DNA from: Escherichia coli
Lineage (GTDB): Bacteria > Pseudomonadota > Gammaproteobacteria > Enterobacterales > Enterobacteriaceae
Assembly (NCBI RefSeq): GCF_041886205.1
Contig: NZ_CP169029.1
Length of the DNA: 64,000 bases
Direction: 5' to 3' (one strand)
This document shows positions 14,579 to 53,280 of this stretch, piece after piece (position 1 is the first letter of the stretch; every line of letters starts with the position of its first letter). Made by a program: the position numbers and the translations under genes. Under the pieces are notes generated by a model. The model saw only the letters and a list, made by a program, of their open reading frames with translations, was not told the origin of the DNA and searched no databases.

Positions 14579-14740
14579 GATTTTTCCTCTTTCACATAGT
14601 GGGTTCCACAGCAAAGAGACGCGGAACCCTGGAGTTGTTTAGGTATCCGGATGAACAACCAGACCGCAGCCGTGGCGTTGCATCGGATGAGATGGCGTAT
14701 AAGTTCTACCTTTTGGTAAGACATGTCAACCCGAATTCTG

Positions 14741-14864
14741 AAATTGGTTAACCACATCACAAGAAATCAACTCTATTGCTGGTTGATGCAAATGACAACA
14801 AAGGAGAAGCGGCGGTTAGTAATCGGGGGATGTGACATTCATCGCAATAATGGTTGACCAATTT
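14741..14864. promoter_or_regulatory. uxuAB control region with two UxuR/ExuR-operator-like palindromes
   Basis: aaattggttaaccacat (14741-14757) and tggttgaccaattt (14851-14864), near-palindromes around TGGTTAACCA, upstream of uxuA. Confidence 0.55.
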
Positions 14865-14972
14865 ACATAACGTGTCGCCCAAAATAACAATGGATTAACC
14901 TACTCCCCCATTGCATAAGTTGTGACCGACACAACAAAACTGATGTTGTTGCAAAGATTGCTATTTAGTTTT

Positions 14973-14987
14973 GGTATAAAAGGTATA
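14973..14987. promoter_or_regulatory. NanR-operator-like GGTATA direct repeats upstream of nanM
   Basis: ggtataaaaggtata about 50 bp upstream of the nanM start; NanR is known to bind GGTATA repeats. Confidence 0.45.
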
Positions 14988-15036
14988 CAGGCACATGGTG
15001 CGACATTTGAATTCCAGCGATCAGGAGTAATTCACA

Positions 15037-16143
15037 ATGAATAAAACAATAACGGCGCTTGCTATCATGATGGCTTCATTTGCCGCAAACGCGTCTGTAT
15101 TACCGGAAACTCCTGTGCCATTTAAAAGTGGTACCGGAGCAATTGATAACGACACTGTCTACATTGGTTTAGGTAGCACAGGTACGGCATGGTACAAGCT
15201 GGATACACAGGCCAAAGATAAAAAATGGACAGCGTTAGCTGCATTCCCTGGCGGACCAAGAGATCAAGCAACCTCGGCATTTATTGATGGCAATCTGTAT
15301 GTGTTTGGCGGCATTGGCAAAAACAGCGAGGGCTTGACTCAGGTATTTAATGACGTACACAAATACAACCCCAAAACCAATAGTTGGGTTAAATTGATGT
15401 CGCACGCACCGATGGGCATGGCGGGTCATGTAACTTTTGTACACAACGGCAAGGCTTATGTTACTGGCGGTGTTAACCAGAATATCTTCAATGGCTATTT
15501 TGAAGATCTCAACGAGGCTGGAAAAGATTCAACCGCTGTAGATAAAATCAACGCTCACTATTTTGACAAAAAAGCAGAAGATTATTTCTTCAATAAGTTT
15601 CTGTTGTCTTTTGATCCCTCAACACAGCAATGGAGTTACGCTGGCGAATCCCCCTGGTACGGAACGGCTGGTGCGGCGGTTGTGAATAAAGGTGATAAAG
15701 CCTGGCTTATTAATGGCGAAGCCAAACCAGGATTGCGAACGGATGCCGTATTTGAACTTGATTTCACCGGTAATAATTTAAAATGGAATAAGCTTGCTCC
15801 CGTCTCATCACCAGATGGCGTCGCTGGCGGTTTTGCGGGGATAAGCAATGATTCTCTTATATTTGCCGGAGGGGCCGGATTCAAAGGTTCACGAGAAAAT
15901 TACCAGAACGGTAAGAACTATGCGCATGAAGGCCTGAAAAAATCATATAGCGCTGATGTTCATCTTTGGCATAACGGGAAATGGGATAAATCGGGCGAAT
16001 TGTCGCAAGGTCGGGCCTACGGAGTATCATTGCCCTGGAATAATAGTTTATTAATTATTGGCGGTGAAACTGCAGGCGGCAAAGCGGTGACGGATTCAGT
16101 TTTGATCTCTGTGAAGGATAATAAAGTCACAGTACAAAACTAA
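15037..16143 (+). CDS. nanM: N-acetylneuraminate epimerase (Kelch-repeat sialic acid mutarotase), signal peptide present
   Basis: 368 aa with N-terminal signal peptide (MNKTITALAIMMASFAANA) and repeated Kelch-like GG motifs; RBS aggag. Confidence 0.85.
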   Translation: MNKTITALAIMMASFAANASVLPETPVPFKSGTGAIDNDTVYIGLGSTGTAWYKLDTQAKDKKWTALAAFPGGPRDQATSAFIDGNLYVFGGIGKNSEGLTQVFNDVHKYNPKTNSWVKLMSHAPMGMAGHVTFVHNGKAYVTGGVNQNIFNGYFEDLNEAGKDSTAVDKINAHYFDKKAEDYFFNKFLLSFDPSTQQWSYAGESPWYGTAGAAVVNKGDKAWLINGEAKPGLRTDAVFELDFTGNNLKWNKLAPVSSPDGVAGGFAGISNDSLIFAGGAGFKGSRENYQNGKNYAHEGLKKSYSADVHLWHNGKWDKSGELSQGRAYGVSLPWNNSLLIIGGETAGGKAVTDSVLISVKDNKVTVQN

Positions 16144-16207: not shown

Positions 16208-17188
16208 ATGGACGCAATAATATCGCCCGATTATTACTATGTTCTTACCGTTGCTGGTCAGTCTAATGCCATGGCGTATGGCGAAGGACTGCCATTACCG
16301 GACAGGGAAGATGCGCCTCATCCCAGAATTAAACAATTAGCAAGATTTGCGCATACGCATCCCGGAGGCCCGTCATGTCACTTTAACGACATTATTCCAC
16401 TGACTCACTGCCCACACGATGTTCAGGATATGCAGGGTTATCACCATCCTCTGGCAACGAATCATCAAACACAGTACGGCACCGTTGGCCAGGCACTGCA
16501 TATTGCACGGAAATTACTGCCCTTCATTCCTGATAATGCAGGGGTTCTCATCGTTCCATGTTGTCGTGGCGGCTCGGCTTTTATCGCAGGCAGCGAAGGG
16601 ACATATTCAGAACGGCACGGAGCCAGCCATGATGCTTGTCGTTGGGGAACGGATACTCCGCTATACCAGGATTTAGTCAGCAGAACGCGAGCCGCACTGG
16701 CAAAAAATCCGCAGAACAAATTCCTCGGCGTATGCTGGATGCAAGGCGAATTTGACTTAATGACCTGTGACTACTCGTCACACCCTCAACACTTTAATCA
16801 TATGGTTGAAGCCTTTCGTAGGGATCTAAAACAATACCATTCTCAGCTTAATAAAATTACTGACGCGCCGTGGTTTTGCGGCGATACCACCTGGTACTGG
16901 AAAGAAAATTTCCCTCATGCGTATGAAGCTATTTATGGCAATTATCAAAATAATGTTTTAGCTAATATTATTTTCGTCGACTTCCAGCAACAAGGTGAAA
17001 GAGGACTGACGAACGCGCCTGATGAAGACCCGGACGATTTAATCATGGGATATTACGGTTCAGCGTACCGGTCACCGGAGAACTGGACGACGGCACTGCG
17101 AAGCAGTCATTTCAGCGCGGCAGCCCGTCGGGGGATTATTTCTGACAGGTTTGTAGAAGCAATTTTGCAGTTTTGGCGCGAAAGGTGA
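16208..17188 (+). CDS. nanS: 9-O-acetyl-N-acetylneuraminate esterase (SGNH/DUF303 family)
   Basis: 326 aa beginning ...YVLTVAGQSNAMAYGEG (GQSN catalytic-serine motif); directly downstream of nanM. Confidence 0.8.
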   Translation: MDAIISPDYYYVLTVAGQSNAMAYGEGLPLPDREDAPHPRIKQLARFAHTHPGGPSCHFNDIIPLTHCPHDVQDMQGYHHPLATNHQTQYGTVGQALHIARKLLPFIPDNAGVLIVPCCRGGSAFIAGSEGTYSERHGASHDACRWGTDTPLYQDLVSRTRAALAKNPQNKFLGVCWMQGEFDLMTCDYSSHPQHFNHMVEAFRRDLKQYHSQLNKITDAPWFCGDTTWYWKENFPHAYEAIYGNYQNNVLANIIFVDFQQQGERGLTNAPDEDPDDLIMGYYGSAYRSPENWTTALRSSHFSAAARRGIISDRFVEAILQFWRER

Positions 17189-17195
17189 GCGTTCA

Positions 17196-17846
17196 TTAAT
17201 TTGATTTATTCGCATCCATTAGCGCTTTTAACTGCTCCGGCGTAAACGGTGGTTTGCGTCGGTGCAGCATCGCATGGCAATTAGGGCACACAGGAAGCAA
17301 ATCATTAACTGGATCCAGCTGGTAATCCTCTTTAATGGCTGAAAGCGGCACCAGGTGATGCACATGGATAAAGCCTTCAGCGATATCACCATAGATCTTC
17401 ACCAGATCAACGCCGCATACGTTGCATTGGCATCCATGATGTTCGACCGCTTTATCTCGGGCCTTTTTATCGCGTTCATAGCGGTTTACTGTCACCTTTA
17501 TCGCCGCACCTTCAACGTAGGTCCCCTGCGACGGCAGCTCATCCGGGAACAGAACGTCGGCTATGGGAGCCGCAGCGGCTTTATCCTGATGAATATGAAA
17601 TCCCTGCTCTATGAGTAGCTTGACACATTTAGATTTTATTCCGCCGGTGAAATCCGCAGGGGTAAATTGCGTCCCCGTCATCAATGTCGCTGCGATGCCA
17701 GCAATCGCCTTCGAGGGGTAACGTCGGCCATGATATTCAATTTCATACAACCGTGCAGGCTGGAACTGATGAGTTTCTCCCGCATCCCATAAATGAATAG
17801 CTTCGATGATATACCGCCGCGGAAGATGATCGGGGAGTTTATTCAT
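17196..17846 (-). CDS. HNH endonuclease, McrA-like (candidate modification-dependent restriction/defence nuclease)
   Basis: 216 aa; C-terminal HNH/zinc-finger signature CQCNVCG...HVHHLVPLS...NDLLPVCPNCH; N-terminal roughly 120-aa domain of unknown type; convergent with nanS, next to IS1. Confidence 0.7.
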   Translation of the reverse strand: MNKLPDHLPRRYIIEAIHLWDAGETHQFQPARLYEIEYHGRRYPSKAIAGIAATLMTGTQFTPADFTGGIKSKCVKLLIEQGFHIHQDKAAAAPIADVLFPDELPSQGTYVEGAAIKVTVNRYERDKKARDKAVEHHGCQCNVCGVDLVKIYGDIAEGFIHVHHLVPLSAIKEDYQLDPVNDLLPVCPNCHAMLHRRKPPFTPEQLKALMDANKSN

Positions 17847-17992
17847 AGAGAATGTCCTTATACGTTCTCAGAACAAGCAGCAAAAAAACAAATGAGATCA
17901 AAGTAATATATCTTCACTTGCAGGCTTGAACAGCAGAAAATTTGCGAGCATGATCGCAATTATTTCACTGCCAGGGAGGTAATGACTCCAAC

Positions 17993-18496
17993 TTATTGAT
18001 AGTGTTTTATGTTCAGATAATGCCCGATGACTTTGTCATGCAGCTCCACCGATTTTGAGAACGACAGCGACTTCCGTCCCAGCCGTGCCAGGTGCTGTCT
18101 CAGATTCAGGTTATGCCGCTCAATTCGCTGCGTATATCGCTTGCTGATTACGTGCAGCTTTCCCTTCAGGCGGGATTCATACAGCGGCCAGCCATCCGTC
18201 ATCCATATCACCACGTCAAAGGGTGACAGCAGGCTCATAAGACGCCCCAGCGTCGCCATAGTGCGTTCACCGAATACGTGCGCAACAACCGTCTTCCGGA
18301 GCCTGTCATACGCGTAAAACAGCCAGCGCTGGCGCGATTTAGCCCCGACATAGCCCCACTGTTCGTCCATTTCCGCGCAGACGATGACGTCACTGCCCGG
18401 CTGTATGCGCGAGGTTACCGACTGCGGCCTGAGTTTTTTAAATGGCGGAAAATCGTGTTGAGGCCAACGCCCATAATGCGGGCGGTTGCCCGGCAT
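17993..18496 (-). CDS. insB: IS1 transposase InsB reading frame (expressed as InsAB' by -1 frameshift)
   Basis: 167-aa [19 protein letters not shown]...DGWPLYE... overlapping the insA 3-prime end in the -1 frame, as in IS1. Confidence 0.9.
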
Positions 18497-18690
18497 CCAA
18501 CGCCATTCATGGCCATATCAATGATTTTCTGGTGCGTACCGGGTTGAGAAGCGGTGTAAGTGAACTGCAGTTGCCATGTTTTACGGCAGTGAGAGCAGAG
18601 ATAGCGCTGATGTCCGGCGGTGCTTTTGCCGTTACGCACCACCCCGTCAGTAGCTGAACAGGAGGGACAGCTGATAGAAACAGAAGCCAC
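18415..18690 (-). CDS. insA: IS1 protein InsA
   Basis: 91-aa [46 protein letters not shown]..., the IS1 InsA zinc-finger protein. Confidence 0.95.
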
Positions 18691-18745
18691 TGGAGCACCT
18701 CAAAAACACCATCATACACTAAATCAGTAAGTTGGCAGCATCACC

Positions 18746-19057
18746 CAGCAAACGAACCTGGATGATTTGCCGGATAAAGCCAGCATCATTGACGCGTTTT
18801 TTACCTTTGCTCAACGCGAACAGCAACGTGAAGCAGAAGCCTTGATCAAAGAAGAAAATCTCAATGAAGAGGCGGCGAAACGCTATATTCGCACGTCTTT
18901 AAAACGCGAATACGCCACCGAAAATGGCACGGAATTAAACGAGACATTGCCAAAACTCAGTCCGTTAAATCCGCAATATAAGACGAAAAAACAGACGGTT
19001 TTCCAGAAGATCGTCGCGTTTATTGAGAAGTTTAAAGGTGTAGGCGGGCAGATATAA
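18746..19057 (+). pseudogene. 3-prime remnant of a larger gene truncated at its 5-prime end by IS1; encoded tail is charged and helical
   Basis: Reading frame is open from the IS1 boundary with no start context (first listed codon is TTG); peptide ...[37 protein letters not shown]...[15 protein letters not shown]. Confidence 0.6.
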
Positions 19058-19281: not shown

Positions 19282-19366
19282 TGGTGCCGAAGGCCGGACT
19301 CGAACCGGCACGTATTTCTACGGTTGATTTTGAATCAACTGCGTCTACCGATTTCGCCACTTCGGC
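19282..19366 (-). tRNA. leuX: tRNA-Leu (CAA), leuX
   Basis: Reverse complement reads GCCGAAGTGGCGAAATCGGTAGACGCAGTTGATTCAAAATCAACCGTAGAAATACGTGCCGGTTCGAGTCCGGCCTTCGGCACCA with CAA anticodon loop and encoded CCA end. Confidence 0.95.
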
Positions 19367-24819: not shown

Positions 24820-26334
<1,515 letters not shown>

Positions 26335-26348
26335 TTGCGTCAGGCAAG

Positions 26349-26540
<192 letters not shown>

Positions 26541-53159: not shown

Positions 53160-53280
53160 GTTTGCCGGATGCGGTGCACCTGTAGGCCTGATAAGACGCA
53201 TCAAGCGTCGCATCAGGCACTATGCTCAAATGCCGGATGCGGCGTGAACGCCTTATCCGGCCTACGCACACTATATCAGG
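53160..53280. repeat. REP elements (BIME) between yjgA and mpl
   Basis: tgccggatgcggtgcacctgtaggcctgataagacgcatcaagcgtcgcatcaggc ... gccggatgcggcgtgaacgccttatccggcctac. Confidence 0.8.

Follow-up and report, generated by a model that had tools for sequence, protein, structure and literature searches.

What does a small HNH nuclease gene do when it is left almost alone in an Escherichia coli defence island, and can it act as a defence factor by itself? This question is raised by a 64,000-nucleotide stretch of E. coli contig NZ_CP169029.1 (assembly GCF_041886205.1; the whole stretch is referred to below as the window), in which an open reading frame (ORF) for a 216-residue HNH endonuclease lies between nanS and an IS1 element close to the leuX tRNA gene. 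The product joins an N-terminal domain of the type that stands at the head of the Streptomyces coelicolor enzyme ScoMcrA to a C-terminal HNH nuclease cassette, and the gene is called head-HNH here. The explanation that accounts best for the evidence, and which is held at a little better than even confidence, is that the product of head-HNH acts on its own, as a single-chain defence nuclease of Type IV design, i.e. modification-dependent and working with no methyltransferase. The parts of the gene are as follows:

17196..17846, minus strand: head-HNH ORF, 216 amino acids plus stop, ATG start (from the ORF list)
17577..17846, minus strand: ScoMcrA-type head, residues 1-90 (secondary structure H10-22, E34-38, E41-44, H45-57, H73-80, E84-87)
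17478..17576, minus strand: residues 91-123, a variable acidic spacer (~91-100) followed by the HNH-cassette leader FPDE...EGA..V.VNRYERD
17199..17477, minus strand: HNH (beta-beta-alpha-Me) nuclease with CCCC zinc site, residues 124-216 (from PF01844 and the alignment to 6ghc)
17855..17859, minus strand: Shine-Dalgarno sequence AAGGA, 8 nt 5' of the ATG (from direct reading of the sequence)

An intact gene under purifying selection

The ORF list agrees with an initial annotation of this DNA on the position and size of the ORF, and all three of the motifs quoted in that annotation are found in it: CQCNVCG at residues 139-145, HVHHLVPLS at residues 161-169 and NDLLPVCPNCH at residues 181-191. 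The ORF is not a product of chance, because it has a Pfam HNH match, 7056 homologues in the protein database at E<=1e-3 (mostly 205-225 amino acids long and colinear from residue 1), invariant alignment columns and a low ratio of nonsynonymous to synonymous substitution rates (dN/dS). Among 59 aligned homologues 25 columns are invariant, all catalytic and zinc-binding positions included; C141, C144, H163, H164, C187, N189, C190, H191 and H195 are among these residues. The same 59 proteins share both start and length, which rules out that the ORF is a piece of a larger gene, an outcome that the initial annotation had named as one that would overturn it.

The gene is under purifying selection within E. 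coli. Compared with the allele of E. coli 64A:C, dN/dS is 0.10 overall, and for the head domain alone dN is 0 at a dS of 0.126; compared with other genera, where dS is estimable, the ratio is 0.15-0.25. An identical 216-residue protein, carrying Pfam ScoMcrA_N, is present in 303 blocks of public assemblies. Near-identical copies are labelled 'HNH endonuclease' in RefSeq and 'McrA' by automated pipelines.

The N-terminal head domain

Residues 1-90 form a domain related to the head of ScoMcrA. In a single-sequence phmmer search, residues 24-87 align with residues 29-93 of PDB entry 5zmm (E 2.7e-5), and Pfam PF26345 (ScoMcrA_N) is recorded in the protein collection for the exact protein and its homologues. 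The profile of one alignment, A3, matches ScoMcrA at 8.5e-17, a value that is partly circular in the sense that A3 contained ScoMcrA residues 29-93; independent support for the identity of the head comes from the extension of the profile match into ScoMcrA residues 4-28 and from the single-sequence search. AlphaFold2, run on the 59-sequence alignment, predicts two confident domains, residues 1-90 and 124-216, and the model folds nothing beyond head and HNH. The initial annotation had described an unassigned N-terminal domain of about 120 residues, of which the first 90 are indeed a folded domain; the remaining residues do not belong to it and are divided between a spacer of about 10 residues and the leader of the HNH cassette (~101-123). 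The SRA, YTH and EVE readers with which a comparison had been suggested are not found at the N-terminus, residues 1-90 being the ScoMcrA head.

A mean net charge of +2.5 makes the head mildly basic; R41, R42, K46, K73 and K76 are conserved in it, and the aromatic residues F28, Y34, Y43 and F66 are invariant. Its fold has 402 matches in AFDB50 at E<=1e-3. The matches listed include HNH-annotated proteins of about 190-415 residues; proteins with EVE, YDG/SRA, DUF3427, DUF3883/NOV_C and ZorC-EH domains; DUF3578/McrB-N and McrB-like AAA+ proteins of 600-1000 residues; proteins of the size of ScoMcrA; and free-standing proteins of 88-103 residues. This range of fusion partners marks the head as a module that recurs at the N-terminus of proteins of restriction type. 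When the head was used by itself as query, a word-index search gave just 28 short fragments and no other architectures, and PHROGs contains no family for it. One tentative possibility is that the head is a DNA reader of a previously unrecognised fold, which would sense DNA features foreign to E. coli, be they modifications, lesions or structures. The term 'sensor domain' used in the initial annotation is a putative one.

The spacer and the HNH cassette

In the C-terminal half of the protein the Pfam HNH family PF01844 covers residues 141-197 (E 1.8e-4), the PADLOC profile mREase_IV PDLC03656 matches residues 122-198 (E 8.3e-6), and residues 123-198 align with the HNH domain of EcoKMcrA (6ghc 199-269; phmmer E 4.9e-4), the catalytic and zinc positions being the same in both. 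Foldseek matches for the nuclease domain are the HNH-containing Cap5, Cas5-HNH, Cas9 and TagI. The nuclease is complete and non-fragmentary, as had been proposed, and retains all of its catalytic and zinc residues.

Between the two folded domains, residues 91-123 have a predicted local distance difference test (pLDDT) score below 50 in the monomer model, and the spacer segment has a mean net charge of -3.6. From about residue 98 onward the sequence is conserved in thousands of HNH cassettes with unrelated N-termini, and because of this conservation the segment 101-123 is taken as part of the cassette despite its poor modelling. The reach of the cassette was surveyed with the C-terminal 126 residues (17199-17576, minus strand) as query against a representative library of 1.84 billion proteins. 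Matches fall into 12,620 clusters at 50% identity, 1,317 of them at E<=1e-30. In the best 150 matches the cassette forms the C-terminal end of the protein or lies close to it, preceded by ~30 to 1000 residues, and the N-termini that Pfam can name are DUF3427, Mrr_N, EVE, DpnI_C, DUF4357, AlbA_2 and HU-like, with DUF3427, EVE, Mrr_N and DpnI_C as examples of known readers of DNA or of its modifications. The Type IV layout of a targeting domain fused to HNH, which the initial annotation had recognised, is thus the layout in which the same cassette occurs elsewhere with DUF3427, EVE, Mrr_N and DpnI-type domains.

Comparison with known modification-dependent nucleases

The protein has a Pfam architecture of ScoMcrA_N (PF26345) plus HNH (PF01844), both features being present, and it resembles several characterised enzymes in part. 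ScoMcrA (Sco4631; PDB 5zmm) is a Type IV HNH endonuclease dependent on phosphorothioate (PT) and 5-methylcytosine (5mC). It has 561 residues and owes its known specificities to a sulfur-binding domain (SBD) and an SRA domain, whereas the window protein has 216 residues and neither of these. The likeness between the two HNH domains is marginal (4.2 bits); that of the window protein is nearer to the HNH of EcoKMcrA, and for this reason the protein is not a mere deletion derivative of ScoMcrA. Orthology with ScoMcrA is ruled out, since there is no PF26340 record and no Pfam SAD_SRA match and 216 residues are too few to hold an SBD.

EcoKMcrA (PDB 6ghc) depends on 5mC or 5-hydroxymethylcytosine and has in common with the window protein the pattern CxxC...HH...CxxCH...H and the layout of an N-terminal domain for targeting, putative in the window protein, and a C-terminal HNH domain. 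Its N-terminal domain, NEco, is unrelated to the head, and orthology with EcoKMcrA is excluded by the lack of an NEco match at the N-terminus, though the HNH is of McrA type. EcoKMcrA is encoded in the e14 prophage of K-12, in contrast to the leuX/nanS island here. The description 'McrA-like' given previously is therefore apt for the HNH cassette, whose closest solved structure is EcoKMcrA, and not for the N-terminus, which is a ScoMcrA head with no NEco match.

The PT-dependent EcoWI or SBD-HNH family (NF045808) shares the design of a reader, putative in head-HNH, plus HNH with no methyltransferase, and differs in both domains, its reader being an SBD (PF26340) and its nuclease HNH_2 (PF13391). 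Membership of this family is ruled out by a score of 15.4 bits for the window protein, the cutoff being 180. EcoWI restricts PT-modified plasmids and cuts in vitro alone, as a homodimer (PMC7461809). The wH-HNH, Mrr_N-HNH, EVE-HNH and DUF3427-HNH proteins (among them SruGXI, VcaM4I and TspA15I) belong to the same cassette family and have 210-290 residues; characterised examples of these types are modification dependent (PMC11037411).

Other HNH contexts were also considered. In 50,697 phage records the combination of head and HNH does not occur, and the 8 matches found there all cover the HNH half only (query residues >=90). This result and the chromosomal setting between nanS and a defence island rule out a phage packaging or homing HNH. 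The 'END nucleases' have an unrelated architecture (Type IIS-like plus an inactive EndoIII). The design of head-HNH is like that of the modular reader-HNH enzymes of Type IV, and its putative targeting domain is set apart from the readers of known specificity.

Neighbours of head-HNH in other genomes

In E. coli M18 and ET201, where more of the island is present, the genes divergent from head-HNH are a 50-codon stump annotated as 'phosphorothioated DNA-binding restriction endonuclease', AbiEii/AbiEi, a DUF4942 gene and Type I hsdMSR. In E. coli 64A:C and O169:H41 the place of the stump is taken by a full SBD-HNH gene on the opposite strand, which encodes 290 residues and scores 436 bits against NF045808; the start codons of the two genes are 136 bp apart. 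The back-to-back pair of head-HNH and SBD-HNH is also found in Klebsiella sp. R445, in K. aerogenes and in three Citrobacter species, and in an all-against-all comparison of 12 loci the only neighbours shared across genera are SBD-HNH and a SymE-like toxin. No methyltransferase is conserved next to head-HNH in these 12 loci, and none is adjacent in five further loci; the hsdMS genes of M18 and ET201 belong to a separate Type I system, which is deleted in the window.

The HNH genes of these islands occur in several combinations. K. aerogenes has an array in which hsdM, hsdR, an Mrr_N-HNH gene and an SBD-HNH gene, in that order, face head-HNH (loci L101 and L102, 4260-6636). In Raoultella (L032, 8791-10354) the SBD-HNH gene is followed 23 bp downstream by an Mrr_N-HNH gene, which was confirmed as such, and head-HNH is absent; in Citrobacter portucalensis (L030) and Enterobacter (L018) SBD-HNH is followed by a gene that matches the HNH half only, again with no head-HNH. 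The three HNH genes, with their three different N-terminal domains, look like a row of autonomous modules and not like subunits, because each of them comes and goes independently of the others. A paralogue of head-HNH, 58% identical, is carried by an integrative and conjugative element (ICE) at leuX, where it lies between helix-turn-helix (HTH) regulators and a relaxase, with an SBD-HNH gene 4 kb away.

SymE-like genes are present near head-HNH or SBD-HNH in several genera (L007 8672-9004; L008 10679-11041; L009 9213-9575; L100 11042-11425; L032 5331-5720), an echo of symE in the K-12 immigration control region.

The locus and its truncation by IS1

The surroundings of the gene are given by coordinates that bear out the earlier placement between nanS, IS1 and leuX:

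16208-17188, plus strand: nanS, its end 7 bp from the stop of head-HNH
17847..17977: the half that remains of a divergent intergenic region, including a conserved block
17978..18745: IS1, 768 bp, with InsA and InsB ORFs, its right inverted repeat ending at 18745
18746..19057 (ORF 18767-19057), plus strand: C-terminal remnant of Type I hsdR, 96 codons (from the ORF list)
19282..19366, minus strand: leuX tRNA-Leu(CAA), the anchor of the island (from ARAGORN and Rfam tRNA)

Defence hotspot #37 of E. coli has leuX as its anchor (review PMC12707154), and the assignment of the locus to a leuX hotspot is upheld. Alignment of the window to intact E. coli loci stops exactly at 17977/17978, and the left end of IS1 lies 5 bp ahead of the ATG of the lost SBD-HNH gene. 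The IS1 is flanked by CCAGGGA and CAGCAAACG, with no target-site duplication. Because the duplication is absent, the junction implies an IS1-associated deletion which removed everything up to the hsdR tail. Either an adjacent deletion mediated by IS1 or recombination between two copies of IS1 would account for the event, in which SBD-HNH, AbiE, DUF4942, hsdM, hsdS and most of hsdR would have been lost. The earlier statement that there is no partner methyltransferase holds for the truncated locus, where the hsdR tail alone is left, the remainder of the 64-kb window not having been screened.

The sequence upstream of head-HNH had been described as a region of its own. It is rather one half of the divergent region that head-HNH shares in related genomes with the PT-dependent SBD-HNH, the other gene having been deleted here by IS1. 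Within the retained half, a block CTTGAACAG...TTTTGCGAGCAT[G/C]ATCGCAATTATTT (window 17925-17965) is invariant across the gene pairs of Escherichia, Klebsiella and Citrobacter while the rest of the spacer has diverged. It holds an 18-bp palindrome, TTGCGAGCATSATCGCAA, at 17942-17959, which was also flagged by a terminator scan. The block is a candidate operator or promoter element. A scan for a sigma-70 consensus promoter upstream of head-HNH gave no match.

Some further features of the window were noted. At 14614-15037 uxuA directly abuts nanM, with no gntP, no nanC and nothing of the fim operon from fimB to fimH. Of 5426 complete E. coli genomes only two, ET201 and 6EVA, have this junction, and given its rarity the window therefore comes from an unusual lineage without type 1 fimbriae. 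Elsewhere in the window, Rfam matches are a Ysr276-like antisense RNA (25381-25575, minus strand), a Mg2+ riboswitch (Magnesium-II; 43022-43137, minus strand) and three naRNA4 elements derived from repetitive extragenic palindromes (26409-26484, 53185-53262 and 59425-59503).

Distribution and decay in E. coli

The prevalence of the two nuclease genes was counted in the same 5426 complete E. coli genomes, a feature being scored as present when at least 80% of it was covered. The head-HNH gene is found in 1238 genomes, this allele of SBD-HNH in 1707 and the pair in 326. Three quarters of the genomes with a full-length head-HNH gene have no intact SBD-HNH gene next to it.

Variants of reduced length or altered active site are also on record. 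Two shortened products have 161 residues (P0004) and 123 residues (P0059). In P0001, which represents a 90%-identity cluster of 2133 members, the zinc-ligand motif CPNCH is altered by C187Y and there are other changes besides; the allele may be inactive, or the assembly may be in error. In ET201, the closest complete relative of the window lineage, AbiEii has an internal stop (locus L097, 11041-11988), which is another sign of decay of the island.

A near-complete loss is seen in K-12, and it bears on a small ORF that adjoins head-HNH in the window:

17107..17196, minus strand: ythB-like small ORF, 29 codons, translation MNAHLSRQNCKIASTNLSEIIPRRAAALK, homologous to the body of K-12 YthB

This ORF overlaps the stop codon of head-HNH (TAATG), is antisense to the 3' end of nanS and is annotated in M18 as a hypothetical protein. 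K-12 YthB (MNKLPAHLSRQNCKIASTNLSEIIPRRAAVLK, 33 codons; locus L092, 5820-5918) consists of head-HNH codons 1-5 fused to the downstream small ORF by a deletion of ~640 bp, which corresponds to about 17191-17831 of the window. In MG1655 both ribosome profiling and protein tagging have revealed YthB (bioRxiv 10.1101/511675), and the homologous start region is accordingly active in E. coli.

Proposed mode of action and alternative explanations

If head-HNH encodes an autonomous defence nuclease, the head would bind DNA and supply the targeting, perhaps through some property of foreign DNA that the Dam- and Dcm-methylated E. coli chromosome does not have. Since E. coli hosts in general are Dam+ and Dcm+, the target cannot be Dam or Dcm marks in their native contexts. 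The flexible acidic spacer would tether the head to the HNH cassette, and the cassette, probably dimeric as in ScoMcrA and EcoWI, would nick or cut nearby with one divalent metal ion. The protein would be one interchangeable module in an array of HNH nucleases (head, SBD and Mrr_N) in the leuX/nanS defence island; in the window, IS1 has taken the neighbours and left the head-HNH module with its start region intact. The retention of the full-length gene in 1238 E. coli genomes, though the pair is kept in 326, is counted in favour of autonomy. The proposal is also favoured by the retained catalytic and zinc residues, the constraint on both domains, the reader-type or restriction-type partners of cassette and head elsewhere, the absence of the head-HNH combination from the phage records and the active start region in K-12. 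The proposal of the initial annotation, a single-gene defence factor, is plausible in so far as many genomes carry the gene with no conserved partner; on the side of phenotype, no published activity or restriction of any head-HNH protein was found in the literature.

This last result is one of several that weigh against the proposal. The head of ScoMcrA is small and flexibly attached, and its function was unknown to the authors of the structure (PMC6224610). In many architectures the head stands beside a bona fide reader, a finding that can be read for or against a sensing role, and it may be an accessory module rather than a sensor. PADLOC (v2) and NCBIfam returned only weak, sub-threshold matches. 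The locus is, moreover, visibly decaying in E. coli, as is evident from the near-complete deletion in K-12 (codons 6-216), from about 1049 further genomes with partial matches alone and from the shortened products.

The same observations can be read in other ways. The recurrence of the back-to-back pair in Escherichia, Klebsiella and Citrobacter, the 50-codon partner remnant in M18 and ET201, the presence of SBD-HNH as sole cross-genus neighbour besides the SymE-like toxin and the invariant block in the intergenic region shared by the pairs of three genera would all be expected if head-HNH were half of a two-gene PT-sensing module, a split ScoMcrA in which it serves the divergent SBD-HNH as second nuclease or regulator and is orphaned here. 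ScoMcrA itself holds head and SBD on one chain, and the ICE paralogue too has its SBD-HNH gene close by. Such a module is nevertheless unlikely. EcoWI needs no second protein to restrict and to cut, SBD-HNH is found alone in some genomes, and head-HNH occurs without SBD-HNH in K. pneumoniae, Atlantibacter, Escherichia sp. ESNIH1 and Pseudescherichia as well as in Aeoliella, Shewanella, Pantoea and one metagenome contig. Among 80 genome loci scanned the association is limited to the Enterobacteriaceae, and in E. coli the pair is present in just 326 of the 1238 genomes with head-HNH, yet the ORF is intact and constrained. The third gene of K. aerogenes, Mrr_N-HNH, fits independent modules better than an obligate pair. 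The signs of erosion might, in turn, suggest that head-HNH has no function today and is a relic not yet disrupted, the last ORF of an island that is being worn down by IS elements and deletions: IS1 has removed the rest of the island here, K-12 has lost the gene, other genomes keep only parts of it, C187Y and the AbiEii stop add to the damage, and the promoter scan was negative. A relic is improbable in view of a full-length ORF with every invariant residue kept, the low dN/dS within E. coli and between genera, a product preserved unchanged in 303 collection blocks, a good ribosome-binding site and a homologous start region that is translated in K-12.

The HNH cassette could also serve a purpose other than restriction, as a toxin-like or stress-induced DNase, as a weapon in conflicts among mobile elements, or in repair or recombination, with the head as a regulatory or protein-interaction domain. 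The loose attachment of the ScoMcrA head, the existence of stand-alone head proteins, the position of the paralogue inside an ICE, with HTH regulators on one side and the relaxase on the other, and the recurrence of SymE-type toxins nearby would agree with such a role, and the acidic spacer could, as a speculation, be auto-inhibitory. This is the most doubtful of the alternatives. Many of the listed fusion partners of the head are annotated in restriction or defence (EVE, SRA, DUF3427, McrB, HNH and DUF3883), the 12 loci compared show no conserved antitoxin-like partner, and the absence of the protein from phages and of any intein or intron context excludes a packaging or homing HNH. An autonomous defence nuclease of Type IV design is thus the explanation retained.

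Implications

The head domain of ScoMcrA was solved in 2018 and left by its authors with no described function (PMC6224610). It stands at the N-terminus of hundreds of clusters of restriction-like proteins, including McrB-like ATPases and fusions to EVE, SRA, DUF3427 and HNH domains. The 216-residue E. coli protein is its simplest natural setting, since it consists of head and nuclease only, and its occurrence in a tractable host, where roughly one sequenced E. coli in four carries it, gives a direct handle on the function of the domain. Should the protein prove inert or non-specific, what remains would be one more annotated 'HNH endonuclease' of the ordinary kind, in an island under decay. 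The map of the leuX defence hotspot is refined, the K-12 small protein YthB is now explained as the fused stump of a head-HNH gene, and an array comes to light in which three HNH nucleases carry interchanged N-terminal domains. A new modification-dependent nuclease would also be a possible reagent. If the head is a reader, head-HNH would stand as the minimal enzyme in a Type IV class of new specificity, and the enterobacterial head-HNH, SBD-HNH and Mrr_N-HNH genes would constitute a three-sensor battery built around one nuclease cassette.

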